In this document: piece after piece, positions 3,755 through 27,480 of the stretch
Layout: every line of letters starts with the position of its first letter
Position numbering within the stretch: position 1 is the stretch's first letter
Assembly (NCBI GenBank): GCA_964646805.1
Contig: CAZYFL010000001.1
Span: 1-30,731, forward strand
Direction: 5' to 3'
DNA from: an uncultured Elusimicrobiaceae bacterium
GTDB taxonomy: Bacteria; Elusimicrobiota; Elusimicrobia; Elusimicrobiales; UBA9959
Length of the DNA: 30,731 nucleotides
Notes under the pieces: model-generated
Seen by the model: only the letters and a program-made list of their open reading frames with translations
What the model was told of the DNA's origin: nothing
Databases searched by the model: none
Position numbers and translations under genes: made by a program

Positions 3755-3900
3755 AACTTAAAAGTTGCGTCGCCAAAGTGCCCGGCTTTGACAGGAACAT
3801 TGTATCAAAAATACAGTACGCGCGATCTTTGAAACAGTAGCCCAGTAGCCCATTTTTGAGATGGTTTCTATCAGCAGATTGTTAATAAACCGATAAAGGG

Positions 3901-3974: not shown

Positions 3975-4086
3975 GGTGGCTGGGCTGTCGGGCTATAGAG
4001 CTTAGAACTGACAAACCCGATAACTCTATAACTATGGTCTTCAACCCAAACAACCTGGGCGATTATATATAAGCACGGAGGGAGAC

Positions 4087-4728
4087 ATGATTTGCGTCGT
4101 AAGAATTCAATCACAGGCAAGTTTGACTATGCTTTGGGATGAAGTTTTAAGTAAAAAAGAGGAACTGCAGAAGATCTTAAATACGAACGGCAAGATACTT
4201 TACATCTCTAAAAGATGCAACTGCAACGAAGTAAGCATATTTATGCATGTGGCAAATATGAACATTCTGGGCGATTTTATCGCCAGCCATCTGGCAAAAT
4301 TAAAAGGAGTAGACGCCATCTGGCTGCTCAATATGTTAAAACCCGCTTTTTTTGCATCGCCTCCAAACATTGAAAAAATGGACAGGTACACAGTAACCCT
4401 GAAAATTTATCCCGCGAAATTAAGCGAAATATATGAAAATTTATTCTCCTTAAAATTACCGCCTGAAACAAGCATGACTTATCTGGCTTATACCTTTCAC
4501 CTGCTGGGGGATTGTCTGCAGTTTTCCCTGGTGACCAATAACGGGGACACATTGAAGGGATACATTAGTAATACCATCCGGCAGTTGCCCGGGGTACTGT
4601 GTACAACCGTTTGTAAAATTGAAAAAACCGCTCTTTTTGTCTTACATGGCGAATGGAAAAAATATATATCCCAAACCACCGGGATTAACTGGAACGACAA
4701 CTATATGATGGAACAATTCCAAAAATAA
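4087..4728 (+). CDS. Tandem Lrp/AsnC ligand-binding (RAM)-like domain protein without an HTH
   Basis: Two similar segments end in LGDFIASHLAKLKGVDAIWLL and LKGYISNTIRQLPGVLCTTVC, the (F/Y)I-xxx-L-xx-L-x-GV-xx-T pattern of Lrp/AsnC C-terminal domains. RBS GGAGGGAG. First gene of the operon. Confidence 0.55.
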   Translation: MICVVRIQSQASLTMLWDEVLSKKEELQKILNTNGKILYISKRCNCNEVSIFMHVANMNILGDFIASHLAKLKGVDAIWLLNMLKPAFFASPPNIEKMDRYTVTLKIYPAKLSEIYENLFSLKLPPETSMTYLAYTFHLLGDCLQFSLVTNNGDTLKGYISNTIRQLPGVLCTTVCKIEKTALFVLHGEWKKYISQTTGINWNDNYMMEQFQK

Positions 4729-4731
4729 CTT

Positions 4732-5934
4732 ATGGAAGTTCAGATTGAACCTTCATTGATATCCGAGGTTCGCAGATTCGGCGGATTTGACGCGGCTGCG
4801 TGCTACAATTGCGGCAGCTGCGCCGCCGTCTGCGCCTTGTCAAAAGATAATGCCATGTTTCCGCGCAACAGCATGAGATATGTGCAACTGGGACTGAGAA
4901 AGCCTTTATCAGGGAGCCTTGACCCCTGGCTGTGTTATTATTGCGGCGATTGCGCCACAACCTGTCCGAGACAGACCGAACCCGGCGAATCAATGATGAC
5001 CCTCAGACGGTATCTCATGTCCGTTTATGACTGGACGGGACTCTCTTCAAAATTTTATCGGTCAAAGTCGTGGCAAATAGGGGCGATTTTCCTGGCGGGC
5101 GCTTTAGTCCTGCTTCCAGCCGCGCTTATTCCCGCGTCTTTTGTGGCTGATTTTCATCAGAATTTAAGCGCTTCCAGGATCATGGAATTCGGCCATCTTC
5201 TTGAATTTACCTTAATATCCACGCTGGGTTTATTTGTTCTTCTCCCCAACATGTTCCGCATGTACTGGTTTGCCATGCACGCGGACAGCGATTTTAATGT
5301 ATGGAAAATTCCGTCGGCGCTGCTCCGGGACGGCCCTGGGTATGTCAGGAGCGAAAACAAGAAGATCAGGCTTTCCCCTGGTTTGTTTTTAAGGGAAGCC
5401 GTGACGCCGCTCCTTCATGGCGTCTTCCAGATAAAATTTCTGGAGTGCGCGGCGACGGCTAAAAACCGCTGGATAAAACACTGGCTGATCGCATCGGGAT
5501 ACATGCTGATGCTGGCGATGATAATTTTTCTGGGCTGGTTCAAAACGCTGGATTACCCGATCTATCATCCCGTGAGATTCCTTGGATATTATGCCACCGT
5601 CATTCTGGTCGTTTTTACCGCGGATGCGCTGATAGGGCGTATCAGGAAACGCGAGCAGGCGCACAAATTTAGCGAGTTAAGCGACTGGCTGTTTCTAATA
5701 TGGCTGTTTTTGATGGCGGCCAGCGCGCTGGCTGTTTATGTATTCATGAGCCTGGGGCTTGGGCGGATTGTTTACTACGCATACGTTTTCCATTTAATGG
5801 TGCTTGTCCAGTGGGCGCTCGTTATAGTTCCTTTCGGGAAATGGATACATTTCATGTATCGTCCGCTTGCGATTTATCTGCAATCAGTCAGGGAAAGAGC
5901 CTTAAAGGAATGCGCGGACAGGGTGTCGGCATGA
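4732..5934 (+). CDS. qmoC: QmoC-like membrane subunit (HdrC-like 2x[4Fe-4S] N-terminus plus HdrE/NarI-like transmembrane domain)
   Basis: CYNCGSCAAVC and CYYCGDCATTCP motifs, followed by several hydrophobic helices carrying His residues (RWIKHWLI, VFHLMVL...PFGKWIHFMYRP). Confidence 0.8.
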   Translation: MEVQIEPSLISEVRRFGGFDAAACYNCGSCAAVCALSKDNAMFPRNSMRYVQLGLRKPLSGSLDPWLCYYCGDCATTCPRQTEPGESMMTLRRYLMSVYDWTGLSSKFYRSKSWQIGAIFLAGALVLLPAALIPASFVADFHQNLSASRIMEFGHLLEFTLISTLGLFVLLPNMFRMYWFAMHADSDFNVWKIPSALLRDGPGYVRSENKKIRLSPGLFLREAVTPLLHGVFQIKFLECAATAKNRWIKHWLIASGYMLMLAMIIFLGWFKTLDYPIYHPVRFLGYYATVILVVFTADALIGRIRKREQAHKFSELSDWLFLIWLFLMAASALAVYVFMSLGLGRIVYYAYVFHLMVLVQWALVIVPFGKWIHFMYRPLAIYLQSVRERALKECADRVSA

Positions 5935-8900
5935 ACGCCGCACCCAAAAGCAACGGAGGTAAAATCGGCGCCGCCCTTGTGGTGGGCGGCGGCATAGGCG
6001 GAATGCAGGCATCGCTTGATCTTGCAGCCGCCGGCATTAAGGTTTATCTGATTGATTCGGGTCCCTGCATCGGCGGAGTGATGGCCCAGTTGGATAAAAC
6101 ATTCCCCACCAATGATTGTGCGATGTGCACAATGGCGCCGCGGCTGGTTGAAGTAAGCGCGCACAAAGACATTAAATTAATCACGCTGGCTGAGGTGGAC
6201 ACCATAACAGGGGAGGCCGGCAGTTTTACGGCAACTCTGAAAATAAAGCCGCGTTTTGTAGATGAGGAAAAATGCAACGGCTGCGGGGCATGCGTTCTGG
6301 TTTGCCCTATAGGCAGGATACAGCCTTCCAGTGACAAAAAAAACCCCCAGCCGTTGGCGGATGAGTATAACATGGGTTTGTCCTCCAGGCCTGCGATATA
6401 CATACCGTATCCTCAGGCCATACCTAATAAAGCCGTACTTGACTCGGCTAACTGCCTTTATTTTAAAACCGGCAAATGTAGCCTGTGCAAAAAAGTCTGC
6501 AAGGTTGACGCCATTGATTTTGAACAAAAAGAAAAACCGATTACCCTTAACGCGGGAGCGATAATACTGACGCCCGGCTATGAACTGTTTGACGCCGGAT
6601 TAAAGCCCGAATATGGGTATGGCGGCTTTAAAAACGTTCTGGCGTCTTTGGAATTTGAGAGAATACTGTCTGCTTCCGGCCCGTTTCAGGGCAAAATACT
6701 GAGGCCGTCCGACAAGACCGAGCCTAAAAAAATCGCCTTTATACAATGCATCGGTTCGCGCGACTGCGAAAGAGACTATTGCTCTGCGGTCTGCTGCATG
6801 TACGCCACAAAAGAGGCGCTTCTTGCCAAAGAACATCTTGGGGAAAAGCTGGAATGCGATATTTATTTCATGGATTTGCGCGCTTTCAGCAAGGGATTTG
6901 AGGAGTACTATTTAAGAGCCAGGAAGAACGGGATCAACTACATAAGATGCCGGCCCCCGTCCGTAGAAGAAGTTCCGCAGACTAAAAACCTGATTATCAA
7001 ATATGTGGCCGAAGATGAAAAAAAGGCGTCGCGCGAATATGACCTGGTGGTATTATCGGCGGGCCTCAGGCCTCCCAGGCATAGCGGGGAACTGGCCGCG
7101 AAGTTCGGCCTTGTGTTAAATAAGCATGGTTTTTGCGCAAACAGCGTTTTTGCGCCGGTTGATTCGCCAAAGCCCGGAATTTTTACCGCCGGCGCGTTTA
7201 CGGGACCCAAAGACATTCCTGAAACCGTTATTCAGGCGAGTTCCGCCGCGGCGAGGGCGCTGGAACTGCTGTCTGAGGCAAAAGGCTCGCGTATCTCAAA
7301 AAAAGAATATCCCCTTGAAACGGATATTTCGGGGCAAGAGCCGCGGGTCGGGATTTTCATATGTCACTGCGGCACAAACATAGCCGGCGTGGTAAATGTA
7401 GAAGAAGTGGCGGAATACGCAAAGAAACTGCCGAATGTCGTATATGCCGATAATATTCTTTATGCCTGCGCTAATGATAGCCAGGAAAAAATCAAAAAAA
7501 CAATTATCGGGCAGAAATTAAACCGCGTTATCGTGGCGGCATGCACTCCAAGGACCCATGAGTCTTTGTTCAGAAACACAATAAGGGAAGCCGGCTTAAA
7601 CTCTTATCTTTTTGAAATGGCAAATATCAGGGACCAGTGTTCCTGGGTGCATATGCATGAGCCTGGGAAGGCCACAAAAAAAGCCAAAGATCTGGTGCGC
7701 ATGGCATTGTCCAAAGCGAGGCTTATAGAGCCTCTGTATAGAAAGAACGTGCCGATAAGCAAAGGAGTTGTTGTTCTTGGCGGGGGATTGGCCGGAATGA
7801 CTGCGGCGCTGAGTCTTGCAAACCAGGGTTTTGACGTCCATTTGATTGAAAAGCAGGCGGCATTGGGCGGGAATTTGCGCAAACTCCATTATCTGTCTGA
7901 TGTGAGTTCCAAACCGCAACAATATCTGGAAACCATTACTGAGCGTGTCAGCCGGAATAAAAAAATCCATATTCACGTAAACGCAAAAATCCCGGTCATT
8001 GAAGGATTTATCGGCAACTTCACCACAAAGCTGTCGGATAACGGGGAATCCGGCGGGGAAATAAAGCATGGGGCGATAGTAGTGGCCACAGGCGCCGGGG
8101 AGCACAAGCCCGGCGAATATCTGTACGGCAAGAATCCCAATGTCTTAACACAACTTGAACTGGAAGAACGGTTAGCCAATGACGGCAGGAGCTTTTTAAG
8201 CGCCGTAGGCCGTGCGCCTAAAACAGTGGTTATGATTCAATGTGTCGGCTCGCGCGAGACTGCCCGTCCCTATTGCAGCCGCCTGTGCTGCAATCAGGCG
8301 GTTAAAAATGCGTTAAAAATTAAGGAACTGAGCCCGGAAACAAACGTATATATTCTGTACCGGGATATGAGAACATACGGCTTTGGGGAAGGTTATTATA
8401 CGCAAGCCAGACAGGAAGGCGTGGTGTTCATAAGATACGATGAAAACAAAAAACCCGAATTAGCGGAGCATTCAGGAAATTTATTATCGATTAAATGTTT
8501 TGAGCCTATTTTGCGCATGGACATTGTCTTAAACGCGGATTTGGCGGTTTTATCAGCCGCGGTCGTCCCGCAGCCGGAGAATAAAGAGCTTGCCCAGATG
8601 CTTAAAGTTCCTCTTGATGCTAACGGATTTTTCCTTGAGGCTCATATGAAACTCAGGCCGGTGGATTTCGCCAATGACGGCATATTTTTGTGTGGTATGG
8701 CGCATTTCCCAAAAGCTATTGACGAGACTATTGCGCAGGCAAATGCCGCCGCCGCGCGGGTGGCGGCAATACTTTCAAACGACACTATGGAACTTGACGC
8801 CAATATTTCAAGCGTCATTGATGAAAACTGCGACGGCTGCGCCTACTGCGTTGACCCTTGTCCCTATAAGGCCGTCACACTGATTGAATACATGAAGAAC

Positions 8901-9050
8901 GGCGCGATAAAGAAAACCGTTGAGGTCAACTCAAGCCTCTGCAAGGGCTGCGGAGTCTGCCAGGGCACCTGCCCGAAGAAGGCCGTAGTAGTGAAAGGTT
9001 TTAAGCTGGAGCAGCTTTCCGCCATGGTGGACGGCTTGTTAAAAGAGTAG
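5931..9050 (+). CDS. hdrA: Large two-module HdrA-family flavoprotein (QmoA+QmoB-like fusion, about 1039 aa)
   Basis: Start at ATG 5931 (ATGA overlap with the upstream stop). Module 1: VVGGGIGG, LDKTFPTNDCAMC, inserted ferredoxin, CIGSRD..YCSAVCC. Module 2: RVGIFICHCG, ACTPRTH, NIRDQCSWVH, VLGGGLAG, CVGSRE..YCSRLCC, and C-terminal CDGCAYCVDPCP / CKGCGVCQGTCP. Confidence 0.92.
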   Translation: MNAAPKSNGGKIGAALVVGGGIGGMQASLDLAAAGIKVYLIDSGPCIGGVMAQLDKTFPTNDCAMCTMAPRLVEVSAHKDIKLITLAEVDTITGEAGSFTATLKIKPRFVDEEKCNGCGACVLVCPIGRIQPSSDKKNPQPLADEYNMGLSSRPAIYIPYPQAIPNKAVLDSANCLYFKTGKCSLCKKVCKVDAIDFEQKEKPITLNAGAIILTPGYELFDAGLKPEYGYGGFKNVLASLEFERILSASGPFQGKILRPSDKTEPKKIAFIQCIGSRDCERDYCSAVCCMYATKEALLAKEHLGEKLECDIYFMDLRAFSKGFEEYYLRARKNGINYIRCRPPSVEEVPQTKNLIIKYVAEDEKKASREYDLVVLSAGLRPPRHSGELAAKFGLVLNKHGFCANSVFAPVDSPKPGIFTAGAFTGPKDIPETVIQASSAAARALELLSEAKGSRISKKEYPLETDISGQEPRVGIFICHCGTNIAGVVNVEEVAEYAKKLPNVVYADNILYACANDSQEKIKKTIIGQKLNRVIVAACTPRTHESLFRNTIREAGLNSYLFEMANIRDQCSWVHMHEPGKATKKAKDLVRMALSKARLIEPLYRKNVPISKGVVVLGGGLAGMTAALSLANQGFDVHLIEKQAALGGNLRKLHYLSDVSSKPQQYLETITERVSRNKKIHIHVNAKIPVIEGFIGNFTTKLSDNGESGGEIKHGAIVVATGAGEHKPGEYLYGKNPNVLTQLELEERLANDGRSFLSAVGRAPKTVVMIQCVGSRETARPYCSRLCCNQAVKNALKIKELSPETNVYILYRDMRTYGFGEGYYTQARQEGVVFIRYDENKKPELAEHSGNLLSIKCFEPILRMDIVLNADLAVLSAAVVPQPENKELAQMLKVPLDANGFFLEAHMKLRPVDFANDGIFLCGMAHFPKAIDETIAQANAAAARVAAILSNDTMELDANISSVIDENCDGCAYCVDPCPYKAVTLIEYMKNGAIKKTVEVNSSLCKGCGVCQGTCPKKAVVVKGFKLEQLSAMVDGLLKE

Positions 9051-9054
9051 TTTT

Positions 9055-9510
9055 ATGGAAAACACCCCCGAATCAGCGATTGACACGGTTGCGGCTGGAA
9101 ACGTGTTTGAACCGGTTATTGTGGCGTTTTGCTGCAACTGGTGTTCCTACACCGGCGCAGATCTCGCGGGAACCTCCCGGTTTCAGTATCCGGCCAATAT
9201 CAGGATAGTACGGGTGATGTGTTCGGGCATGGTGCATCCGAACCTGGTAATAGACGCTTTCACCAAGGGCGCCGATGGTGTGATTATCTGCGGGTGCCAC
9301 CATGGCGACTGCCACTATATCGACGGAAACCTAAAGTGCGAAAAGCGCGTTGAGGCAATTAAGCTTTTGCTGGAAGATTTCGGCATTGAACAGGACCGGT
9401 TCAGGCTGGAATGGATTTCAGCTTCGGAGGGGCCCAGGTTCGCGCAGGTTATGACGGACATGACCGGGCAGGTTAGAAAACTCGGGCCGAGCCCGTATAA
9501 GGGAGGCTGA
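9055..9510 (+). CDS. mvhD: Methyl-viologen-reducing hydrogenase delta subunit ([2Fe-2S])
   Basis: IVAFCCNWCSYTGADLAG, RVMCSGMV, GADGV..GCHHGDCHY and ISASEG motifs. Confidence 0.93.
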   Translation: MENTPESAIDTVAAGNVFEPVIVAFCCNWCSYTGADLAGTSRFQYPANIRIVRVMCSGMVHPNLVIDAFTKGADGVIICGCHHGDCHYIDGNLKCEKRVEAIKLLLEDFGIEQDRFRLEWISASEGPRFAQVMTDMTGQVRKLGPSPYKGG

Positions 9511-9511
9511 T

Positions 9512-9703
9512 ATGGCTGAACCGGCTAAAATCATCAATTCAAAGAAATTCATGTGGGATGGCAGGGAATACGCCGATGCCGCCGGAGCCGCGGCCGCGGC
9601 AAAAACTTACGAGCAGGCGGGCTTTGAAGCGCAGGCGTTGGAAGAAGGCGGGAGACATCTGGTGTATTCAAGACGTTTGGCCGTGTCACAGACGACCTCA
9701 TAA
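9512..9703 (+). CDS. Small hypothetical protein embedded in the mvh operon
   Basis: 63 aa (KKFMWDGREY...YEQAGFE...LVYSRR). Strong RBS GGGAGG, 1-nt gap to mvhD, same strand. Confidence 0.7.
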   Translation: MAEPAKIINSKKFMWDGREYADAAGAAAAAKTYEQAGFEAQALEEGGRHLVYSRRLAVSQTTS

Positions 9704-9732
9704 GAGTCTAAACAAGTATAAGGAGGCGGATT

Positions 9733-10683
9733 ATGGCGGTAAAAGTAGCTGAAGAATGGCTTAATATATGCGGAGGATGCGAGGTTTCCATACTGGATAT
9801 AGGAGAACCGCTGGTTGAGATTCTGCCGCAGCTTGAGTTCGTGCATATGCCGGTACTGATGGATAATAAATATTACGGGCAGACAGGGGATAAACCGAAC
9901 CTAGAGATTCCCGGCGCGGATGTGGGCATAATCTCCGGCGGAGTACGCAACGAGAAGGAAAAGCATGTGGCATTGGAAATGCGCAAAAAATGCAAGACCG
10001 TAATTTCCCTCGGGTCCTGCGCCTGCTACGGCGGCATTCCGGCTCTGGCCAACATGTCCCCGAATGCGGAGCTCCTGGATAAAGTTTACAGGCAGAGCAA
10101 AAGCACCGAACCCGCCGAAACGCCGAAAGAAAATCTGCCTCCCCTTCTGGATCGGGTTTATGCGCTGGACGAAGTGATAAAGGTAGACATTTACATCCCG
10201 GGCTGTCCGACTTCGCCGGACTGGATCAAGGCCGCGATAACAGCCCTTTTAACCGGCAAGCCGTTTACGATGCCGGATAAGAGCGTCTGCGACGAATGCC
10301 CCACAAAACGCGAAAAGAAAGCCGCCGGCGGACAGATTAAGCGGTCGCTTGAAGGCGTTCAGTTCAAGCAGGGCGAACCGTGGGAAAATACCCGGTGTTA
10401 TATGGAGCAGGGGCATCTGTGCCTGGGCCCCGTAACCAGGGCCGGCTGCGCCGGCATCACCACTGAAGCCGGCGAATCGCCGGCGCCGCGCTGTATCAAG
10501 GGTTACATGCCCTGCAGAGGGTGTTTCGGCCCGGTAAAAAAGGATTCAAACCCCCTCGTTGACATGATGACGGCAATTTCCTCCATCGGCCTTGAAGCCG
10601 GCCAGGTGGCCGACCGCAGGGCTTTGCTTAACCGCTATATCGGCAGCCAGGGAAGATTACGACCGCTTCCCGCCAGGAAATAA
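9733..10683 (+). CDS. mvhG: Group 3c [NiFe]-hydrogenase small subunit
   Basis: WLNICGGCE, GSCACYGG, YIPGCP, CDEC, CYMEQGHLCLGP, and CIKGYMPCRGCFGP motifs. RBS AGGAGG. Confidence 0.92.
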   Translation: MAVKVAEEWLNICGGCEVSILDIGEPLVEILPQLEFVHMPVLMDNKYYGQTGDKPNLEIPGADVGIISGGVRNEKEKHVALEMRKKCKTVISLGSCACYGGIPALANMSPNAELLDKVYRQSKSTEPAETPKENLPPLLDRVYALDEVIKVDIYIPGCPTSPDWIKAAITALLTGKPFTMPDKSVCDECPTKREKKAAGGQIKRSLEGVQFKQGEPWENTRCYMEQGHLCLGPVTRAGCAGITTEAGESPAPRCIKGYMPCRGCFGPVKKDSNPLVDMMTAISSIGLEAGQVADRRALLNRYIGSQGRLRPLPARK

Positions 10684-10713
10684 TAAACTGTTAAAGAAGG
10701 AGACACAACCACT

Positions 10714-12159
10714 ATGGGAAAAATAATCACCATCGCGCCCGTATCAAGGCTTGAAGGGCACTTAAAAGTGTCAGTGAATCTCGATGATGCCGGCAATGTG
10801 TCCGACACGTTCGTGCAGGCGGTTGAACTGCGGGGGTTTGAAAAATTTTGTATAGGACGCCCCGTTGAGGAGATGCCGAGGATCGTCACTTCCATCTGCG
10901 GCGTCTGCCCCTGGTCGCATCACCTGGCGTCGGCCAAAGCCTGCGACGCGGTTTTCGGGGTTACACCCCCGCCTACCGGCAGGAAACTCCGGGAACTCTG
11001 CAATGCCATAGCCTACTGCGAGGAGCATATACTCCATTTCTTCTTCCTTGCCGGAGCGGACTTCGTGCTCGGCCCCGGCGCGGATTACAAGATCCGGAAC
11101 ATTTTCGGCATTGTCAAAGCCGCTCCGGAACTTTCGGCCAGGGTGGTAAGAGCAAGGCATCTGGGCGTGAGGATGCTCAATGTGGTCTCGGGCAAATCCA
11201 TACACCCCGTCACCGCCGTGCCGGGCGGGTTTTCAAAACCGCTTCGCGAAGAAGAGCGCAAGCTGATACTGCCAATGGCCGGAGAAGTGCTTGAGTTCGC
11301 CAAAATGGCCATAGCCTGGGCGAAAAAAGACATTTTCCCCAGATATCCGGATGCGGTTAAGACCATCGGAATAATAAAGACCGGCTTCATGGCCACCGTG
11401 GACGCGGGCGGCGCCATGAATCTCTATGACGGCAAGATACGGCTTATGAAGGCCGACGGCACGCACATAGACTTTGACGATTCAAACTACCTGGACTATA
11501 TAGGCGAGAAAGTCCTGCCCTGGTCATACATGAAGTTCCCCTACGCCAAAACCTGGGGCGAGGGGTTCTCCATGGATCTTGACAACCCGAAGGGCATCTA
11601 CAGGACCAATACGCTGGCGAGGGTAAATGCCTGCGAGAGCATCCCTACTCCTCTCGCCCAGGCCGAGCTTGAAGAGTTCAGGAAGCTTTTCGGCAGGCCC
11701 GTGCAGGCCACGCTCCTCTACAATTGGGCTAGGCTCATAGAGCTGCTCTACAATGCGGAGCGGACCGTGGAGCTCCTTAACGACAAGGAAATAACCGGCG
11801 CCGAAACGCGCGTGCCGGTAACGCCCAGGGCCGCCAGGGGCGTGGGCCACGTTGAGGCCCCGAGAGGTACGCTCTTCCACGACTACGAAACCGACGAGAA
11901 CGGCATGGTCAGGAACGTGAACCTTATCGTCGGGACCACTCATAACAACGGGCCCATAAACATGTCGGTGAAGCAGACCGCCATGGCGTTGATAAGGGAC
12001 GGCAAATACGACGAAGAAATTCTCAACAAGATTGAGATGTCCATCCGCGCCTATGACCCCTGCGTTTCCTGCGCCACGCACGACCTGGACGGGAAAATAA
12101 TGGTCAGCGTAGACATAAACGGTCCGGACGGAAAACTAATAAAAAATTTCCGAAATTAG
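10714..12159 (+). CDS. mvhA: Group 3c [NiFe]-hydrogenase large subunit
   Basis: SRLEGH, ELRGFE, L1 PRIVTSICGVCPWSHH, VEAPRGTLFH, LIVGTTHNN, and L2 RAYDPCVSCATH followed by a cleavable 25-aa C-terminal extension. Cys, not Sec. Confidence 0.95.
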   Translation: MGKIITIAPVSRLEGHLKVSVNLDDAGNVSDTFVQAVELRGFEKFCIGRPVEEMPRIVTSICGVCPWSHHLASAKACDAVFGVTPPPTGRKLRELCNAIAYCEEHILHFFFLAGADFVLGPGADYKIRNIFGIVKAAPELSARVVRARHLGVRMLNVVSGKSIHPVTAVPGGFSKPLREEERKLILPMAGEVLEFAKMAIAWAKKDIFPRYPDAVKTIGIIKTGFMATVDAGGAMNLYDGKIRLMKADGTHIDFDDSNYLDYIGEKVLPWSYMKFPYAKTWGEGFSMDLDNPKGIYRTNTLARVNACESIPTPLAQAELEEFRKLFGRPVQATLLYNWARLIELLYNAERTVELLNDKEITGAETRVPVTPRAARGVGHVEAPRGTLFHDYETDENGMVRNVNLIVGTTHNNGPINMSVKQTAMALIRDGKYDEEILNKIEMSIRAYDPCVSCATHDLDGKIMVSVDINGPDGKLIKNFRN

Positions 12160-12178
12160 GTGGATAAAACAAATCAGT

Positions 12179-12733
12179 ATGAATAAACAGGATAATCTTT
12201 CCGGGTTGCATCCGTCCGAAGAGCGGACGGAATACGATACGGACGGGAAAAGAACGCTGGTGATAGGCTGCGGGAACGTGTTACTCGGCGATGACGGTTT
12301 CGGCCCCGCGGTCATAAAAGCCCTTTCAACCGGGTCCGTGCCGCCGCACGTTGCGCTTATAGACGCCGGCACCGGTATAAGGAAGGTTCTCTTCAATATT
12401 GTGCTTTCAGAGCAAAAACCGGAAAAGATAATTATTCTCGACGCGGTCCGCAAAGAGGGACGCCGGCCGGGAGAAGTGTTTGAGCTGGCGCTAAATGAAA
12501 TGCCGCCGCAAAAGGCGGAGGACTTTTCCGTCCACCACCTGCCCACCACCAATATGCTGCGCGAACTTCAGAAGGACTGTGGCGTAAAAGTAATGATAAT
12601 AGCGGCGCAGGTTGCCATGCTTCCCTGTGAAATGTCCTGTGGTTTATCCGGGCCCGTAGCAAGAGCCGTCCTGAAAGCGAAGAAAATAGCAGCAAGGGAA
12701 CTGTGTGGGCAAACGAGCGGAGTGAGGCAATGA
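12179..12733 (+). CDS. Hydrogenase maturation endopeptidase (HycI/HyaD family)
   Basis: VIGCGNVLLGDDGFG, IDAG, IILDAV and SVHHLP motifs. Directly after mvhA. Confidence 0.92.
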   Translation: MNKQDNLSGLHPSEERTEYDTDGKRTLVIGCGNVLLGDDGFGPAVIKALSTGSVPPHVALIDAGTGIRKVLFNIVLSEQKPEKIIILDAVRKEGRRPGEVFELALNEMPPQKAEDFSVHHLPTTNMLRELQKDCGVKVMIIAAQVAMLPCEMSCGLSGPVARAVLKAKKIAARELCGQTSGVRQ

Positions 12734-14112
12734 GCGGCTTGATTCCGGAAATATTGCAGACAGAACTCCTGCAGGAGGTACTGGCTCAGACCAGGGAGCC
12801 GTCTTCGGCGGCTGTTTCGGAAATTCTTGACCGCGCGCGGGATAAGAAAGGGCTGGCCCTTAGAGATGTCGGCTATCTGGCGAACCTTAAAGAGCCGGAA
12901 CTCGTCCGCAAACTTTTTCATGCCGCAGCGGTTATAAAGCGGGAAATCTACGGCGAGCGGCTGGTTTTCTTCGCGCCGCTGTATATCTCCGACTATTGTG
13001 TTAACGATTGCGAATATTGTAATTTCCATGCCGGTAACAAGCAACTGGCGCGGCGCAAACTCACTATGGCTGAAGTGGGCGCTCAGACCGCATTCCTGAT
13101 AGACCAGGGACATAAAAGAATCCTGCTTGAGGCAGGCGAAGATCCGGTTAACAATGATATAGAATATATCGTTGATGCCATAAATAAAATATACTCCGTC
13201 CGGACTCCCAAAGGCAATATCCGCCGCATCAATGTTAACATTGCGGCCGCCACGGTGGAAAACTACCGTAAACTCAAAGGGGCCGGCATCGGCACCTATC
13301 AACTTTTTCAGGAGACCTACCACCGGCCGACTTATGAGCGGTTGCATTGCGGTCCGAAGGCGGACTTTGAACGCCAGATTACCGCCCATCTTCGCGCCTT
13401 TGAGGCAGGCATTGACGATGTCGGGGTGGGCGCGCTTTTCGGGCTTTATGACTGGCGGTTTGAGGCGCTTGCGCTGGTCGCGCACAGCCAGTATCTTGAA
13501 AAAACCAATAATGCAGGCCCGCACACTATTTCAGTGCCGCGGATATGCGCGGCGCCAACCGTTGACTATAAACCCCAATACCCCGTCAGCGACGACGATT
13601 TCCTTAAACTGATTGCTATCCTGCGGCTGGCCGTTCCGTATACCGGAATAATTCTCTCTACCAGGGAACGGCCGGAGGTCAGAAAGCTTGCCTTCAAGAT
13701 CGGTATTTCGCAGGCAAGCGCCGGATCGGTTGCCGTTACCGGCGGCTATGGCAAAAAGGAGCGGCAGCCGCAATTTACGATTAATGATGAACGCTCCATG
13801 CAGGACGTAATCAGCGATGTTATAAAAGATAAACATCTGCCCAGTTTCTGCACGGCTTGCTACCGGAGCGGCCGGACCGGCGAGCGCTTTATGGCGCTTG
13901 CCAAGCCGGGGGATATCCATAAATTATGCCGGCCCAACGCAATCATAACTTTCGCCGAATATCTGACCGATTGCGCCACTGACGAACTGCGCAAGAAAGG
14001 CGGCCGCCTCATTGAGGAATCCGTTAACGGAATAGAAGAACTTCCGCTGCGCCGGGAAACCAGGAATCGGCTTGCCCGCATCGCCGCCGGTGAACGGGAT
14101 ATTTATTTCTAA
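12730..14112 (+). CDS. hydG: HydG-type radical SAM tyrosine lyase (CO/CN- synthase)
   Basis: Start at ATG 12730 (ATGA overlap with the protease stop). FAPLYISDYCVNDCEYC (CX3CX2C), QLFQETYH, GPHTISVPR (dangler-Fe His), and C-terminal FCTACYR-x-CRPNA with CX2CX22C spacing, ending GERDIYF. These features separate HydG from ThiH. Confidence 0.9.
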   Translation: MSGLIPEILQTELLQEVLAQTREPSSAAVSEILDRARDKKGLALRDVGYLANLKEPELVRKLFHAAAVIKREIYGERLVFFAPLYISDYCVNDCEYCNFHAGNKQLARRKLTMAEVGAQTAFLIDQGHKRILLEAGEDPVNNDIEYIVDAINKIYSVRTPKGNIRRINVNIAAATVENYRKLKGAGIGTYQLFQETYHRPTYERLHCGPKADFERQITAHLRAFEAGIDDVGVGALFGLYDWRFEALALVAHSQYLEKTNNAGPHTISVPRICAAPTVDYKPQYPVSDDDFLKLIAILRLAVPYTGIILSTRERPEVRKLAFKIGISQASAGSVAVTGGYGKKERQPQFTINDERSMQDVISDVIKDKHLPSFCTACYRSGRTGERFMALAKPGDIHKLCRPNAIITFAEYLTDCATDELRKKGGRLIEESVNGIEELPLRRETRNRLARIAAGERDIYF

Positions 14113-14121
14113 GGAAGAGCT

Positions 14122-15390
14122 ATGTGTTACGCCATTCCCGGCAAAGTGGTGGAAATTAACGGCCAGGTTGCTACGGTTGATTATTACGGCGAATGCAGAA
14201 AAGCATATACCGACCTGACCGAAACTGCCATCGGAGACTATGTCTACGCCCAGGGCGGTTTTATCATCCGGACGGTTCCCGTACCTGAAGCGCGGGAGAT
14301 ACTCTCGGATTGGCGCGGACTTTTCTTCAAACTGCAGGGGATTGACCGGAAACTCACCAGCAACCCGCGCACTATCTACGGACGCGCCAACGCCATCAGA
14401 CATAAATATCAGGGTAATTCCTGTTGTGTCCACGGTATACTGGAATTCTCCAATTATTGCAAAAACAACTGCCTATACTGCGGCATCAGGAATGATAATA
14501 GCTCTGTTACCCGCTACCGGATGACGCCGGAGGAGATCCTGGAGGCGGTTGGCTATGCGGTAGAGAAATTGGGGTTTAAGGCGCTGGTGCTGCAATCCGG
14601 AGAAGATCCGTATTACGATGAGGATAAACTGGAAGGTATTGTCCGGGAGATTCGCGCGCGTTACCCCGTCCTTCTTTTTGTCTCAATAGGGGAACGGCCG
14701 CTGTCAACCTACCGGAAGCTGTACCAGGCCGGCGCGCGCGGGGCGCTTATCAGGTTTGAAACCGCTAACCCGGACATTTATGCCGGTGTAAAACCCGGTT
14801 GCGATCCTGCGCAGCGCGTTAAATTAATAAAAGAGATCGGTGAACTGGGCTATCTGATTATTACGGGTTTCCTGGTGGGATTGCCGGGTGAAACGAATCG
14901 TGACGTCATCAGGAATATCAAACTCACCGGAAAACTCGCAGGCGGCCGTTTTGAGGGGCAGAGGCCGGACAGGCTTGACGCAACTTCCGTTAAGGCGCAG
15001 ACAGGCCCTGTCGCCGAAGCTTCAATGAAGGAGGGGATGTTCTCATTCGGCCCGTTTATCGCTCATCCACGCACGCCGCTGGCAGGTACGCCGCCGCCGG
15101 AATTAAGCCGGATGCTTAATACTATTGCCCAGGCCAGGTTGATGTATCCCGCTGCGCGGATAGTTGTTACCACCGCATTGGAAACACTGGATACCCAAAA
15201 CGGCGCGCGGGAAGGGCTGATGGCCGGAGCCAATTCGCTGATGATAAATATAACGCCAATCAAATACCGCCGGCTCTATGAGATATATCCCAACCGCGCC
15301 GGCGCCGGGGATGACATCCCTGCAAGGATTGATTCCGTCCTGAAACTCCTCCATTCGCTGGGCAGGGCGCCGACCGATATCGGAATCTGA
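14122..15390 (+). CDS. hypC-hydE: Fusion: N-terminal HypC/HupF chaperone domain plus HydE-like (BioB/PylB superfamily) radical SAM domain
   Basis: N-terminus MCYAIPGKVVEI...GDYVYAQGGFII (HypC: MCLAIPGKVVEI...GDYVLVHxGFAI). Then HGILEFSNYCKNNCLYCGIR, YRMTPEEI, VLQSGED, RFETANPDIY, GFLVGLPGET, GPFIAHPRTPL and GANSLMINITPIKYRRLYEIYP, all HydE-like. One continuous 422-aa ORF. Confidence 0.85.
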   Translation: MCYAIPGKVVEINGQVATVDYYGECRKAYTDLTETAIGDYVYAQGGFIIRTVPVPEAREILSDWRGLFFKLQGIDRKLTSNPRTIYGRANAIRHKYQGNSCCVHGILEFSNYCKNNCLYCGIRNDNSSVTRYRMTPEEILEAVGYAVEKLGFKALVLQSGEDPYYDEDKLEGIVREIRARYPVLLFVSIGERPLSTYRKLYQAGARGALIRFETANPDIYAGVKPGCDPAQRVKLIKEIGELGYLIITGFLVGLPGETNRDVIRNIKLTGKLAGGRFEGQRPDRLDATSVKAQTGPVAEASMKEGMFSFGPFIAHPRTPLAGTPPPELSRMLNTIAQARLMYPAARIVVTTALETLDTQNGAREGLMAGANSLMINITPIKYRRLYEIYPNRAGAGDDIPARIDSVLKLLHSLGRAPTDIGI

Positions 15391-15464
15391 GAGAAGTCGG
15401 GTCTCTGTAAACCGGGTTTTCACCCACAGGAAACGGCGAAGACCCACTTTGTATAATTACCCCT

Positions 15465-15869
15465 ATGCATGAATGGGCTTTGGCTGAATCCGTTATAAAA
15501 GCGGCGGTTGAACACGCCGGCGCTGAAAAACTTAAAAAACTTAAAGAGACCGGCGTAGTCTTCGGCGGGCTGCAGGCCATAGACAAAGACGTCTTTGTTT
15601 TCGCGCTGGAGGAGATGCGCAAGCAGTTCCCCTGCGCCAAAGCCTGCAAATTCAAGATAATAAAACAGCCCGCGGCTTTCCGCTGCAAGGCCTGCTCTCA
15701 CGAGTTCACGTTAAAGGGCCTGAAAAAGACAAAAGACGAGGCCGAGTTCATACACTTCGTGCCCGAGATGGCGCATGCCTTCCTGAAATGCCCCAAATGT
15801 AAGAGCCCGGATTTTGAAATTTCCGCCGGGCGCGGCGTCAGTATCAGCTACATCAAGGGGAATAGATGA
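15465..15869 (+). CDS. hypA: Nickel metallochaperone HypA, long Thermococcales-like form
   Basis: MHEWALAESV Ni site, CKAC and CPKC Zn motifs separated by the extended EFIHFVPEMAHAFL segment, and GRGV C-terminus. Confidence 0.92.
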   Translation: MHEWALAESVIKAAVEHAGAEKLKKLKETGVVFGGLQAIDKDVFVFALEEMRKQFPCAKACKFKIIKQPAAFRCKACSHEFTLKGLKKTKDEAEFIHFVPEMAHAFLKCPKCKSPDFEISAGRGVSISYIKGNR

Positions 15870-16726
15870 CTAGCCTGAAAGTTTCAGTTGGCTCGTCTCA
15901 CCGGCGAAAGCCGGTGTCCAGATTCCGACGAGACCTGGATTCCGGCTTTCGCCGGAATGACGGAATAAAAAAATCCGACCCAGCCCGACGATTATGTCAC
16001 TCCAACTGCAATTTTCAGGCTAGTGTTGACCCCAGGCCTTCCGTAATAGAAGAGCGGCTTAAAAAGGTAAAGCGGATCATTGCCGTTACCGGCTGGAAGG
16101 GCGGCATAGGCAAGAGCGTAATTGCCTGCGCGCTGGCGCTGCTGCTTGCAAAAAAGGGCTATAAAACGGGCCTGTTTGATTTGGACTTCGCCGGGGCTTC
16201 CGACCATATAATACTGGGAGCCGGAGGGCTGTTTCCAAAAGAGGAAAAAGGCCTTGAACCGCCGTTGTTTGAAGGCGTGAAGTTTATGTCGGTGGTCTTT
16301 TTCTCGGAGAACAAGGCCGTGCCGCTGCGCGGGGCAAATGTTTCCGACGCAATAATAGAACTGCTGGCTATAACGCAGTGGGGGGAACTGGACTTCCTGG
16401 TGCTGGACATGCCGCCCGGCATAAACGACGCCGCGCTGGATGTCCTGCGCTTCGCGGGAAAGGCCGAAGTGCTGGCCGTGACCACGCCTTCAGTGATAGC
16501 CCGCGACGTGCTGGCGCGGTCGCTGGTTCTTTATCGCGGGCTTAAAGCGCCGGTGCTGGGTGTGTTGGAGAACATGGCGCGCGGCCCGGCGCCAAAGGGC
16601 ATCGCAGCCCGCCTGCGCTTTGATCCCGGGCTTGAAGCGGCGCTTGGCCATCCCGCCGCCCTGATAAAAACCGCTTTTTGCCGCGACCTGATTAGCGCGC
16701 TTAAGATACTTAAACTGGAAGAGTGA
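15866..16726 (+). CDS. hypB: ATPase-type HypB (Mrp/MinD family P-loop ATPase) carrying an in-frame 50-codon MITE insertion
   Basis: DPR..IEERLKKVKRIIAV, deviant Walker A WKGGIGKS, LDLDFAGASDHIILG, PLRG..VSDAIIELL.IT.W.ELDFLVLDMPPG, VLENM. Lacks the CXXC of Fe-S carrier Mrp/ApbC. ATGA-coupled to hypA. Confidence 0.8.
   Translation: MTSLKVSVGSSHRRKPVSRFRRDLDSGFRRNDGIKKSDPARRLCHSNCNFQASVDPRPSVIEERLKKVKRIIAVTGWKGGIGKSVIACALALLLAKKGYKTGLFDLDFAGASDHIILGAGGLFPKEEKGLEPPLFEGVKFMSVVFFSENKAVPLRGANVSDAIIELLAITQWGELDFLVLDMPPGINDAALDVLRFAGKAEVLAVTTPSVIARDVLARSLVLYRGLKAPVLGVLENMARGPAPKGIAARLRFDPGLEAALGHPAALIKTAFCRDLISALKILKLEE
15870..16023. mobile_element. MITE-like element (146 bp plus CTAG duplication) inserted in frame in hypB
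   Basis: ACTAGCCTGAAAGTTTCAGTTGG (15869-15891) and CCAACTGCAATTTTCAGGCTAGT (16002-16024) form a 23-bp inverted repeat with 2 mismatches. CTAG occurs at both ends (15870-15873, 16020-16023). Deleting 150 nt restores ATG ACT AGT GTT GAC CCC AGG (MTSVDPR). Confidence 0.75.
15894..15962. repeat. REP-like palindromic element nested inside the MITE
   Basis: CCGGCGAAAGCCGGtgTCCAG (15901-15921) pairs with CTGGATTCCGGCTTTCGCCGG (15935-15955), with outer CGTC/GACG. Translates as LDSGFRRND, a peptide typical of this palindrome class. Confidence 0.75.
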
Positions 16727-16755
16727 GAATCTTTGTTGAGGCTATGGTTGACGCC

Positions 16756-17274
16756 CTATTTTACTATCTCCCAACTGATGGATAAAGTAATCCTTTCATC
16801 GCTTACCACAACATCCACTTTCTTTGCGCCGTCTTTTGTTCTCTGGTAAGCTTCCGCCATCACATATTGGACTGAATGCATATTCCTGGGAAACATTTCA
16901 ACAACCTTAAAGATTTTAGGATCGCTATCGCCTCTGACCGCCCAATAACTGAAGATCCGGCAACTTCTGTCGTCTTTTTCTACGTTTGCCGATACGGCCC
17001 CTGCCTTCAATCGGCGATACGCTTCGGCCATAAGCGCCTGGTAGGGCGTAGATGCGGGTAATTTTTCTATGCTCAGCATGGTACCGGGTTTATATGTCGC
17101 GGGCATTGGTCCAATTTTTTCCGCAACCTTAACCATTGCAGACGCTGAAGGAACGGCATTTTCCAGCGCCGCCGATGGAACCGCTGATTTAAGTTCCTCA
17201 ATTGCGCTTTCGGAAGCATAAGAGTTTCCAAAAGCTGTTATCGCAAGAACTGCTACAAAGAATACTTTTTTCAT
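16756..17274 (-). CDS. Secreted hypothetical protein with an internal duplication
   Basis: Signal peptide MKKVFFVAVLAITAFGNSYA. Repeats LMAEAYRRLKAGA and VMAEAYQRTKDGA. RBS GGGAGG. Confidence 0.75.
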   Translation of the reverse strand: MKKVFFVAVLAITAFGNSYASESAIEELKSAVPSAALENAVPSASAMVKVAEKIGPMPATYKPGTMLSIEKLPASTPYQALMAEAYRRLKAGAVSANVEKDDRSCRIFSYWAVRGDSDPKIFKVVEMFPRNMHSVQYVMAEAYQRTKDGAKKVDVVVSDERITLSISWEIVK

Positions 17275-17474
17275 AAGACCTCCCAGTGTTTAGCAATACA
17301 CATAGTCTAGCGCAAACAGGGTTTGCGCGTCAGGGTATAAGGGCTCTTTAACTTACGATAACTGCTTGTTTTGTGTGGGTCTTTTGACTGGGCCGCCAGG
17401 CCTATCTACCATGGGTCTTTGTGCCCAATCCAGGAGCCTGCGCGCGGTCTCTTGTCGTTCCCGGAAGCAGCGGC

Positions 17475-18317
17475 TTACAGGGAAGGGGCCGGCGCCAGCG
17501 CCAGGCAGTAGTTTTTAAGGATAAATTTTTCAGAACCGGGAGTGATTCTGCGGAGCTTGCAGACATCGGAGTTGGGGGGACAGAACCGGGCGAGTTCGTT
17601 ATTGGCGGCTGCGTGGCCGGGGCAGTTATCGCAGATGGCGGTCAGAGTTTTCAGGACATGTTTACGTTTCTCTTCCTGCAGTAAACCTAAAAATTTCTTA
17701 ACATCGTCCTTCATGCGGCCGGCGAAGGTGCGCGTGGGATAAACCAGGCTGAGGCGCGGCTTGCACAGTTTCGGCCAGGAATCCACAGCGGCGCCGCCGC
17801 CGTCAAAAATAATCTGAGTGCGGCTTATTACCAGCGCCCGATCGGCAGCGGGGGCGGGGAAGGCGGGGGAATACCTGCTGTGCGAGGTGAAGCCGGCGAA
17901 GAGGTGGTAATCGGACATGCAGGCCGAAATATCAGGATAGACACGCTCGCGCTCCGGGCCGGTTATGAAGGCGCCTTTAACGTCGCCCTCGCCCACAAAA
18001 AAGAAACCGAGTACTCCAGGGCGCATAAGACCGGCCATTACTTCGTCCGCGCTAAGGCCTGTGTGGCCTTCCACCGCGGCGTTCGGGTAAAGTACGGGGA
18101 GCCCGTCGGAGAGCATTGCCCCGACGTCTCCGCAGGCTTTGCCGCTTATCACGTCCTTCATCTTGCCGCCGGGAGAGCAACTGCCCAGGTACACCAGGAA
18201 TTTCCCGGAAGCGCAGAAATTTATGGGCGGGGGTTCGGCGGCCCGTGTGCCGAAGGGTTTAAATTCCGCCTGGGCCGGGGAGACGAGCAGGGCAAGGAAA
18301 AGCAACGTCTTATACAT
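17475..18317 (-). CDS. Secreted Cys-rich hypothetical protein
   Basis: Signal peptide MYKTLLFLALLVSPAQA. 280 aa, about 10 Cys, no family recognised. Confidence 0.7.
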   Translation of the reverse strand: MYKTLLFLALLVSPAQAEFKPFGTRAAEPPPINFCASGKFLVYLGSCSPGGKMKDVISGKACGDVGAMLSDGLPVLYPNAAVEGHTGLSADEVMAGLMRPGVLGFFFVGEGDVKGAFITGPERERVYPDISACMSDYHLFAGFTSHSRYSPAFPAPAADRALVISRTQIIFDGGGAAVDSWPKLCKPRLSLVYPTRTFAGRMKDDVKKFLGLLQEEKRKHVLKTLTAICDNCPGHAAANNELARFCPPNSDVCKLRRITPGSEKFILKNYCLALAPAPSL

Positions 18318-18369
18318 AGGTTCGCGTCATATACGTGAAACAGCGGTCCCCATCATAGTACAAAAATTT

Positions 18370-18378
18370 TGTTATAAT
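18370..18378 (+). promoter_or_regulatory. Extended -10 promoter element for atoDA
   Basis: TG-T-TATAAT, 32 nt upstream of the ATG at 18411, with GGAGGG RBS. Confidence 0.55.
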
Positions 18379-18410
18379 TAGATTTAAGAAATCCTGCGGC
18401 CGGAGGGACG

Positions 18411-19728: not shown

Positions 19729-19791
19729 GGATTTTAATATCTTTTCCGGCAAGACCAAGATGTCGGTGAAGACCCGAGAGGGAGGAAACCT

Positions 19792-20724: not shown

Positions 20725-20730
20725 CGTTCA

Positions 20731-20759
20731 TTGACAACAAAATCAACTTGTGATATAAC
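20731..20759 (+). promoter_or_regulatory. Sigma70 promoter of the dehydrogenase-lyase-CoA transferase-dehydratase operon
   Basis: TTGACA (20731-20736), 17 nt, TG-A-TATAAC (-10 at 20754-20759). RBS AGGAGG before ATG 20803. Confidence 0.75.
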
Positions 20760-20802
20760 CAAAGGAACAGAGCGCATTAATTCTATAGGAGGTCTCCAGA
20801 AT

Positions 20803-22859: not shown

Positions 22860-22868
22860 GGAGCGAGT

Positions 22869-24068: not shown

Positions 24069-24086
24069 GATTGGAGACTGAGCGCT

Positions 24087-25873: not shown

Positions 25874-25918
25874 ATGCCTCCCGAAGGTTAACGCGCGACA
25901 GTATTCTTTCATCGCTTT

Positions 25919-26881: not shown

Positions 26882-26934
26882 TATGGAAACAGAAACAGCC
26901 GCACACCCCACAAATCCAGATACCGGAGGATAGC

Positions 26935-27399: not shown

Positions 27400-27480
27400 A
27401 AAACAGCTTGTCAGGTAAGCGCATTTTCTTATAAACTATTCTTCGCGACGCTGATTTTCCGGCACAGTACGGAGGCCCGC

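Follow-up and report, generated by a model that had tools for sequence, protein, structure and literature searches.

The stretch of DNA analysed here (the window, 30,731 nucleotides (nt) of contig CAZYFL010000001.1 in assembly GCA_964646805.1) comes from an uncultured Elusimicrobiaceae bacterium and contains, at positions 4732-12159, six tightly coupled genes on the plus strand that encode a QmoC-like membrane protein, a fused double HdrA and the subunits of an [NiFe] hydrogenase, and that are considered here as a candidate H2-, ferredoxin- and quinone-linked complex. The six genes are the following.

4732..5934, plus strand: QmoC-like membrane protein, 400 amino acids (aa); Pfam 4Fe-4S dicluster, NCBIfam qmoC, AlphaFold (AF2) model
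5931..9050, plus strand: fused double HdrA (type II HdrA), 1039 aa; NCBIfam HdrA2, 978.9 bits, in three stretches
9055..9510, plus strand: MvhD, [2Fe-2S] adaptor between hydrogenase and HdrA; PF02662, 187.6 bits; NCBIfam VhuD, 142 bits
9512..9703, plus strand: conserved, cysteine-free protein of 63 aa; homologues behind mvhD in 14 related loci
9733..10683, plus strand: MvhG, [NiFe] hydrogenase small subunit; PF01058; NCBIfam VhuG, 226.7 bits
10714..12159, plus strand: MvhA, [NiFe] hydrogenase large subunit of the group 3c type; NCBIfam VhuA, 432.4 bits (best match)

These genes belong to a longer same-strand cluster of thirteen plus-strand genes (4087-16726) that overlap or are separated by very little sequence. 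Its first gene, coding for a protein of 213 aa, ends 3 nt before the start of the QmoC-like gene, the TGA stop of which shares bases with the ATG of HdrA (GGCATGAAC, 5931-5934); gaps of 4 nt and 1 nt follow. A preliminary description of this DNA, made from its letters, had reported an ATGA coupling between the membrane protein and HdrA, and this overlap, like every other element that it named, was found where it had been placed. Its five genes are right but its list passes over the 63-aa gene at 9512-9703, and the extent that it gave, 4732-12159, holds the six genes listed above, whereas the same-strand cluster runs from 4087 to 16726 and includes a maturation protease. The gene junctions are bridged by contigs of four other groundwater runs and by independent assemblies, with no joints reported; two other assemblies hold the junctions of the 213-aa gene with the QmoC-like gene and of the latter with HdrA, and an identical gene is present on a contig from Hainich well H41. 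The population represented by the window comes from a low-coverage groundwater metagenome (word depth of about 3-8x in several groundwater runs), and a metagenome scan for closer relatives yielded short contigs only, none above 74-77% identity. The Hdr and Mvh proteins of the window are closest to those of Elusimicrobia (67-78%). Its GC content is not what the figures of ~66-72 in the names of these Elusimicrobia metagenome-assembled genomes would suggest.

The QmoC-like protein carries two CxxCxxCxxxC motifs (C24/27/30/34 and C68/71/74/78) and matches the Pfam 4Fe-4S dicluster domains, and its residues 13-94 match the HdrC chains of solved Hdr complexes in the Protein Data Bank (PDB). The NCBIfam profile qmoC (NF038018) aligns with it over the full length (profile positions 5-358 of 360, E 2e-45); however, its score of 155.7 bits against a cut-off of 300, and those of the four relatives tested (173-207 bits, all under the same cut-off), identify it at the sequence level as a QmoC paralogue from a sister family of true QmoC and not as an equivalog. 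The AF2 model, based on 25 homologues (pLDDT 78, pTM 0.81), has six long helices and a C-terminal amphipathic helix, and hydropathy together with the positive-inside rule indicates a cytoplasmic location for the N-terminal Fe-S domain (N-in) and for loops 183-243, 305-315 and 369-400. Three histidines, His250, His354 and His373, do not vary among relatives as distant as 35% identity, and a fourth, His279, is found in 15 of 16; His155 and His311 are kept only within the closer subfamily. The topology of the model puts His250 and His373 close to the cytoplasmic face, and His279 and His354 close to the outer one, from which we infer that the four residues suit two bis-His b-type hemes spanning the membrane, as in QmoC. 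The NarI Pfam family is matched by 9 of 25 members of the family (best E 5e-7). The two [4Fe-4S] clusters and the His-bearing helices noted earlier thus have their counterparts in the two motifs, the six predicted transmembrane (TM) helices and the conserved histidines.

The HdrA chain contains two GxGxxG/FAD modules, at residues 19 and 617, in agreement with the two-flavin HdrA in one chain that had been recognised before. Its alignment with the solved HdrA (5ODC; E 1e-195) comes in three pieces, of which residues 13-393 cover the FAD/thioredoxin-reductase (TrxR) domain and the inserted ferredoxin domain, residues 469-647 the N-terminal cluster domain together with the beginning of the second FAD domain, and residues 869-1038 the FAD domain end and the C-terminal ferredoxin domain. 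The two modules are composed as follows.

HdrA module 1, residues ~13-450: FAD/TrxR domain, inserted 2x[4Fe-4S] ferredoxin domain, Cys197 equivalent
HdrA module 2: N-terminal cluster domain (~469-600), FAD/TrxR domain (~610-960), C-terminal 2x[4Fe-4S] ferredoxin domain

Of these elements, NDCxxC (the Cys197 equivalent) occurs in module 1 only and the N-terminal domain in module 2 only, and because the modules are complementary the chain can be regarded as its own asymmetric dimer, with one copy per branch and two flavins. Overall, the branch domains occur once each in the fused HdrA: an N-terminal cluster domain facing MvhD, an inserted ferredoxin domain and a C-terminal ferredoxin domain, the last of which would, by analogy with the solved complexes, face the HdrC-like part of the membrane subunit. 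Counted from the sequences, the cofactor sites amount to two FAD and seven [4Fe-4S] in the fused HdrA and two [4Fe-4S] in the QmoC-like subunit. Across 23 fused HdrA sequences (59-100% identity) neither module shows any variation at the E356 and K409 equivalents, and the cluster cysteines, all eight of the inserted ferredoxin domain among them, are likewise invariant except for one of the N-terminal domain (21/23). Two TrxR-like FAD domains and the complementary distribution of the N-terminal cluster domain and Cys197, which define type II HdrA, are both present in the window protein. Complementary fused or tandem HdrA have been described in anaerobic methanotrophic (ANME) archaea (PMC9012536); the order of the modules in the window is opposite to that in ANME HdrA3/4.

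In MvhA, ICGVCPWSH stands towards the N-terminus and DPCVSCATH towards the C-terminus ahead of a cleavable tail, and with these motifs the protein retains both Ni-binding Cys pairs. The best NCBIfam matches of the three hydrogenase-linked proteins are VhuA (432 bits), VhuG (227) and VhuD (142), all under the equivalog cut-offs; together with the Pfam matches and the Ni-binding motifs they bear out the statement that MvhD, MvhG and MvhA follow HdrA. MvhG is expected to be cytoplasmic because it has no twin-arginine (Tat) signal. In the 30.7 kb, the large open reading frames (ORFs) that are likely to be coding were scanned with Pfam or NCBIfam, and no HdrB (CCG), free HdrC, AprAB, Sat or Dsr was detected; tblastn of the window with an archaeal CCG protein, FrhB and NuoEF gave no match and no CCG, Apr, Sat or Dsr gene. 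The claimed absence of HdrB, HdrC and sulfate-reduction genes therefore stands for separate genes, but the N-terminal part of the QmoC-like protein is itself an HdrC-like domain.

By analogy with the solved MvhAGD-HdrABC complexes and with QmoC, the locus may be read as encoding a membrane-anchored, Hdr/Qmo-type flavin-based electron-bifurcating [NiFe] hydrogenase that would transfer electrons from H2 to ferredoxin and menaquinone, a reading to which we assign a probability of roughly 0.55. H2 would be oxidised in the cytoplasm at the Ni-Fe site, and the electrons would pass through the MvhG clusters and the [2Fe-2S] cluster of MvhD to the single HdrA N-terminal cluster, built from the N-terminal domain of module 2 and the Cys197 equivalent of module 1, and from there to a flavin that would split the electron pair. 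The low-potential electron would reach ferredoxin via the single inserted ferredoxin domain of module 1, and the high-potential electron would move through the single C-terminal ferredoxin domain of module 2 to the HdrC-like clusters of the membrane subunit, then over two b-type hemes (His250/His373 on the cytoplasmic side, His279/His354 on the outer side) to menaquinone. With Fd for ferredoxin and MQ for menaquinone, the net reaction would be 2 H2 + 2 Fd(ox) + MQ -> 2 Fd(red) + MQH2. The standard potentials (E0') are -414 mV for H2, -74 mV for menaquinone and about -500 mV for ferredoxin. Calculated from standard potentials, the net reaction is downhill by ~125 mV per electron at 1 bar H2 and near equilibrium at ~10 Pa H2, and for the latter reason it is reversible in principle; H2 uptake is favoured as its usual direction. 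An outer-face quinone site has been argued for QmoC (PMC3333476), and if the quinone site is on the outer face here, the membrane potential would aid the outward flow of electrons, at the cost of proton-motive force.

A cluster of this composition is known from Archaeoglobi. In Ca. Methanoglobus nevadensis, MvhAGD, two HdrA and a "QmoC fused to HdrC" were reported and electron transfer involving H2, ferredoxin and menaquinone was speculated upon (bioRxiv 10.1101/2022.12.01.518715), and in the cultured Ca. M. hypatiae the cluster was found again, highly expressed (995-2431 reads per kilobase per million, RPKM), and the same hypothesis was put forward (PMC10945360). As in the window, MvhAGD, two HdrA units and a membrane cytochrome-b-type QmoC/HdrC are united in one cluster; HdrB is absent in M. 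hypatiae and AprAB in M. nevadensis, and neither is found in the window. The window locus, compared here with published descriptions of the archaeal one, differs from it in being bacterial, in the fusion of the HdrA units and in the 63-aa gene behind mvhD. A search for RNA runs that might show expression or co-transcription of the window genes returned none. Judged by its sequence, the locus is best filed as a bacterial member of a predicted membrane-anchored Hdr hydrogenase type, one that has its HdrA fused and a small subunit in addition, and the transfer of electrons from H2 to ferredoxin and menaquinone is a plausible mechanism for it but one already proposed for the archaeal counterparts. 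No published description of the bacterial form of the cluster was found in the literature searched; a genome survey of Elusimicrobia lists only group 3c hydrogenases, "probably involved in H2 utilization".

Three further systems share parts of the locus. In QmoABC, known from sulfate-reducing and sulfur-oxidising organisms, the membrane subunit likewise consists of an HdrC-like 2x[4Fe-4S] domain and a multi-helix cytochrome b domain (in the window protein both are predicted by homology) and has two HdrA-like flavoprotein units and an MvhD-like module as its partners; the two hemes b of QmoC are reducible by quinols, and the authors of the QmoABC study named hydrogenase among the possible co-donors (PMC3333476). 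Apart from the QmoC score of the window protein (155.7 vs 300 bits), the systems differ in that A and B are separate in QmoABC and the MvhD-like domain is fused to QmoB, whereas in the window the A and B units are fused and MvhD has its own gene, and in that the window contains a complete hydrogenase and no aprBA or sat in 30.7 kb. The MvhADG-HdrABC complexes of cytochrome-free methanogens (5ODC, 8RVU, 7BKB) have in common with the window a group 3c hydrogenase, MvhD and HdrA homologues, with ligands and E356/K409 kept, and their HdrC chains are matched by the HdrC-like domain. In the window, however, this domain is fused to a membrane domain and there is no soluble HdrC, HdrA is an asymmetric fused pseudo-dimer with one copy per branch domain and, since HdrB with its CCG domains is missing, the complex would have no heterodisulfide site. 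The type II HdrA clusters of Methanoperedens and other ANME archaea (PMC12054007, PMC9012536) include a fused HdrA ~59% identical to that of the window, with the QmoC-like gene before and MvhD after it, but their input is FrhB (F420), not a hydrogenase, and they have a molybdopterin-family protein, a CCG/HdrB-like gene and a second HdrA-MvhD pair.

Homologues of the QmoC-like protein number in the thousands, and a pattern scan with one genome per species returned at least 581 confirmed QmoC-like loci. Neighbours were mapped by tblastn in 116 loci, 55 of which had enough flank, and same-strand neighbours were counted. HdrA genes lie beside the QmoC-like gene in all 55 well-flanked loci (55/55); MvhD is near it in 33/55, a [NiFe] large subunit in 8/55, a NuoF-like gene in 8/55 and a CCG gene in 2/55. 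The electron-input module beside the QmoC-like/HdrA pair varies, being Mvh hydrogenase, NuoEF-like, FrhB or none. The synteny survey suggested in the preliminary description thus shows the same parts recurring in Elusimicrobia and rearranged in Bacteroidota and Calditrichia, and the following gene orders can be distinguished.

Type A (window order): QmoC-like, fused HdrA, MvhD, small protein, MvhG, MvhA, protease
Type B (NuoEF-like): QmoC-like, 296-aa HdrA-fragment/NuoE-like protein, NuoE, NuoF (with or without GltD), Fer2-fused double HdrA, MvhD, small protein
Type C (Qmo-like order): MvhD, short HdrA, long HdrA, QmoC-like; no aprBA
Type D (split HdrA; Bacteroidota, Calditrichia): HdrA, QmoC-like, HdrA, MvhD, MvhG, MvhA
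Type E (archaeal; Methanoperedens): CCG protein, QmoC-like, fused HdrA, MvhD, HdrA, MvhD, FrhB, molybdopterin-family protein

The groundwater Elusimicrobia with type A belong to at least five species (GCA_003450735, GWA2_69_24 and three NC_groundwater metagenome-assembled genomes, MAGs), and one metagenome contig has this order as well; identities to the window proteins are 67-69% for HdrA, 73-78% for MvhG and MvhA and 46-48% for the QmoC-like protein. Within positions 4000-12000 of the window, the 213-aa, QmoC-like and HdrA genes have a GC content of 0.47-0.49, which climbs to 0.55-0.57 in mvhG and mvhA. This step, together with the similarity of the QmoC-like protein to the Elusimicrobia versions (only 46-48%) far below that of HdrA and Mvh (67-78%), hints at a mosaic history of the operon. 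One window-type Elusimicrobia MAG (L006) has, at 18800-23159, a second, conventional cluster of HdrA, MvhD, MvhG and [NiFe] large subunit with its own protease, ~2.5 kb away and on the other strand. In two loci (L103 and L115, ~9600-19100) the order is QmoC-like, double HdrA with a GltD-like insert, MvhD, small protein, MvhG, MvhA and protease; judged from sequence, the insert would give a hydrogenase-linked complex an NAD(P)H site.

Type B occurs in Aminicenantes, Fidelibacterota, Melioribacter and others, sometimes with MvhG and MvhA at the end, and looks like an NADH-fed, sometimes H2-fed, counterpart of the window complex; no published description of this NuoEF-type cluster was found in the literature searched. 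Type B-like loci are L003, L004, L014, L016, L020, L024, L029, L038, L095 and L097, in which NuoF is often fused to a GltD-like part. Type C was found in Anaerolineales, Krumholzibacteria, a Desulfobacterales MAG and the isolate Ancylomarina longa. In the last of these, a cultured member of Bacteroidota (strain T3-2; L088, 6500-11032), short HdrA, long HdrA and QmoC-like genes occur with no aprBA nearby, and the organism is a possible experimental handle on the QmoC-like family. The closest relative of the window membrane protein (75% identity) is encoded directly behind nuoJKLMN, and as its NuoL, NuoM and NuoN score above curated cut-offs, a quinone pool is very likely in that organism.

The anatomy of the complex, the invariant ligands and the synteny fit the bifurcation between H2, ferredoxin and quinone that the preliminary description had put forward, an idea already in print, but a number of observations weigh against it. 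The window QmoC-like protein, which stays under the curated QmoC cut-off, has no NarI Pfam match; a Foldseek search of its AF2 model against the PDB gave nothing significant (best NarI, TMt 0.45, E 2.6; the other matches were weak HdrC and spurious rhodopsins), and a hidden Markov model profile of the TM domain matched no chain among the PDB sequences, so that heme and quinone binding are both inferred, from sequence. The fused HdrA matches "type II HdrA", of which none has been studied biochemically (PMC12054007). Finally, in Methanoperedens relatives a CCG (HdrB-like) gene stands directly before the QmoC-like gene, and the HdrC-like domain can therefore serve a disulfide reductase. The failure of structure and profile searches to return a solved di-heme protein, and the missed NarI model, would suit a six-helix domain that is a mere tether for a soluble HdrA-Mvh module, with neither heme nor quinone and with some other high-potential acceptor; given that four histidines are invariant or nearly so across 35-50% identical relatives and paired near each face, that nine family members match NarI and that the homology extends over the full length of QmoC, the hemes b of which are quinol-reducible (PMC3333476), such a tether is very unlikely. 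The CCG gene, which abuts the QmoC-like gene in two Methanoperedens loci (L007, L018) and precedes it in one from Armatimonadota (L090), bears instead on the possibility that the membrane subunit links the quinone pool to an acceptor encoded elsewhere (HdrB-like CCG protein, DsrC-type disulfide or an enzyme like adenosine 5'-phosphosulfate (APS) reductase), such that H2, with or without quinol, reduces a third substrate. True Qmo works with AprAB encoded next to it and a third partner has been proposed for it (PMC3333476), and the N-terminal domain of the QmoC-like protein resembles the HdrC chains of solved HdrABC. Yet neither the window nor any window-type or Bacteroidota-type locus has a CCG, Apr or Dsr gene, a CCG gene occurs in just two of the 55 well-flanked loci, and a donor, a splitter and two exits are already in the cluster; an unlinked acceptor appears unlikely.

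The other two alternatives retain the quinone and concern ferredoxin and the direction of the reaction. The complex could be a non-bifurcating cytoplasmic H2:quinone oxidoreductase, in which HdrA wires the two-electron oxidation of H2 to one-electron carriers and ferredoxin is no substrate. Bifurcation has been shown for no type II HdrA (PMC12054007), the QmoAB flavoproteins are likewise without proven bifurcation (PMC3333476), and by the established potentials the transfer from H2 to menaquinone alone is strongly downhill. On the other hand, the inserted domain is the ferredoxin exit in the solved HdrA and keeps all eight cysteines, the invariance of the E356/K409 equivalents in both modules argues against idle flavins, and a subunit of 1039 aa with two flavins and seven clusters would be superfluous in a simple uptake hydrogenase, and a complex that spares ferredoxin is considered quite unlikely. 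Alternatively, the same machine might physiologically evolve H2, confurcating reduced ferredoxin and quinol to protons during fermentative or syntrophic growth. This would dispose of electrons at the level of quinol, for example those from CoA-ester oxidation, by a reaction that is near equilibrium at low H2; the neighbouring genes code for CoA transferases, aconitase-like and isocitrate/isopropylmalate dehydrogenase-like proteins and an aldehyde:ferredoxin oxidoreductase, and many QmoC-like relatives come from anoxic sediments and groundwater. Evolution would, however, need H2 of roughly 1 Pa or lower (~1e-5 atm or less), characterised group 3c enzymes take up H2, and uptake is assumed both in the published archaeal model (PMC10945360) and in the Elusimicrobia survey; a role in H2 production is accordingly deemed improbable.

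If electrons from H2 are indeed bifurcated to ferredoxin and menaquinone, the complex would make low-potential ferredoxin from H2 with the respiratory quinone pool as the "pull", H2 oxidation would be tied directly to both biosynthetic reducing power and respiration, and quinone would join the short list of high-potential acceptors of HdrA-type bifurcation. The hydrogenase-linked form is no archaeal curiosity, as it is found in groundwater Elusimicrobia, Bacteroidota and Calditrichia and the anchor family is widespread. More tentatively, the locus could be the form fed by hydrogenase within a very large and modular class of HdrA complexes anchored in the membrane, in which the quinone pool is the bifurcation acceptor and the donors (Mvh, NuoEF-like, GltD inserts, FrhB) are interchangeable. 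The core of this class, a QmoC-like anchor and an HdrA pseudo-dimer, often with MvhD, spans more than 10 phyla, and quinone-linked bifurcation would then be common among anaerobes as a means of making reduced ferredoxin. What is new here is the breadth of the QmoC-like/HdrA core, the swappable donors, the invariant cofactor sites in both HdrA halves and the four-His heme proposal; any carrier that can be grown or expressed could settle what Qmo-like complexes do.

The remaining features of the cluster and its upstream region are listed below.

3788..3817, plus strand: sigma-70-like promoter match TTGACA-18-TACAGT, 10/12 consensus positions, in the AT-rich gap upstream of the cluster
4087..4728, plus strand: protein of 213 aa from a rare family, first gene of the cluster
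12179..12733, plus strand: hydrogenase maturation endopeptidase of the FrhD/HycI type; PF01750; TIGR00072, 115 bits (cut-off 47)
12703-14112, plus strand: HydG; equivalog, 528.7 bits, above the cut-off of 312
14122-15390, plus strand: fusion of a HypC domain with a HydE-like radical SAM protein
15465-15869, plus strand: HypA
Inside 15866-16726, plus strand: Mrp/NBP35-type ATPase

Promoter-like sites overall show no enrichment over shuffled sequences, and the match at 3788..3817 is therefore only suggestive. The 63-aa protein encoded behind mvhD has the motif KKxMWDGxxY...GFE...LxYxRRV and matches no Pfam family; the 14 loci with homologues are of both the hydrogenase type (A) and the NuoEF type (B) and belong to several phyla, and the protein is probably a previously unrecognised small accessory or structural subunit. 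The 213-aa protein matches no Pfam or NCBIfam family, and its own family has 80 cluster representatives among 1.84 billion proteins. A homologue adjoins the Elusimicrobia cluster on the opposite strand in one locus (L027), and an independent contig (L099) has the same adjacency as the window. Since no cysteine is conserved in its alignment, the 213-aa protein is judged not to be a redox subunit; for the same reason, and because of the rarity of its family, it was rejected as a hidden substitute for HdrB. Possibly it is regulatory.

The maturation protease occupies the same position in Elusimicrobia clusters, and the genes at 12703..16726 are not kept beside related Hdr/Mvh clusters. HydG and the HypC-HydE fusion follow the [NiFe] protease, although the window encodes neither an [FeFe] hydrogenase nor HydF. 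The fusion belongs to a large, widespread HydE subfamily present in Planctomycetota, Omnitrophota, Lentisphaerae and Brocadiia, the window protein being closest to those of Planctomycetota and Omnitrophota; in an Omnitrophota genome it occurs together with HydG, HydF and an [FeFe] hydrogenase, which suggests that the pair in the window probably serves ordinary [FeFe] maturation. A new route to the CO/CN ligands of the [NiFe] site through HydG and the fusion was largely rejected, as the fusion is widespread, [FeFe]-linked in the Omnitrophota genome and absent from related Hdr/Mvh loci.

In four groundwater runs the ~95 bp between hypA and the ATPase gene (15871-15966) reach a word depth of 155-300x, compared with 3-8x on either side, and many loose contig ends lie at the borders. 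The segment is single-copy in the window, folds as a long, near-perfect hairpin (-52.3 kcal/mol, z -6.0) and looks like a repetitive extragenic palindrome (REP)- or miniature inverted-repeat transposable element (MITE)-like repeat common to many genomes of the community; the ORF of the ATPase probably starts downstream of it. Further along, positions 18411-29319 encode a two-subunit CoA transferase, TerC, a member of the isocitrate/isopropylmalate dehydrogenase family, an HMGL-like protein, a family III CoA transferase, aconitase-like large and small subunits and an aldehyde:ferredoxin oxidoreductase, which point to organic-acid and CoA-ester metabolism with the use of ferredoxin. At the other end of the window, a partial ORF runs in from the left edge (1-385) and has a Gly/Thr/Ser-rich, low-complexity C-terminus (…GGSTTAGTTTTPPSTG…GRVVISY).

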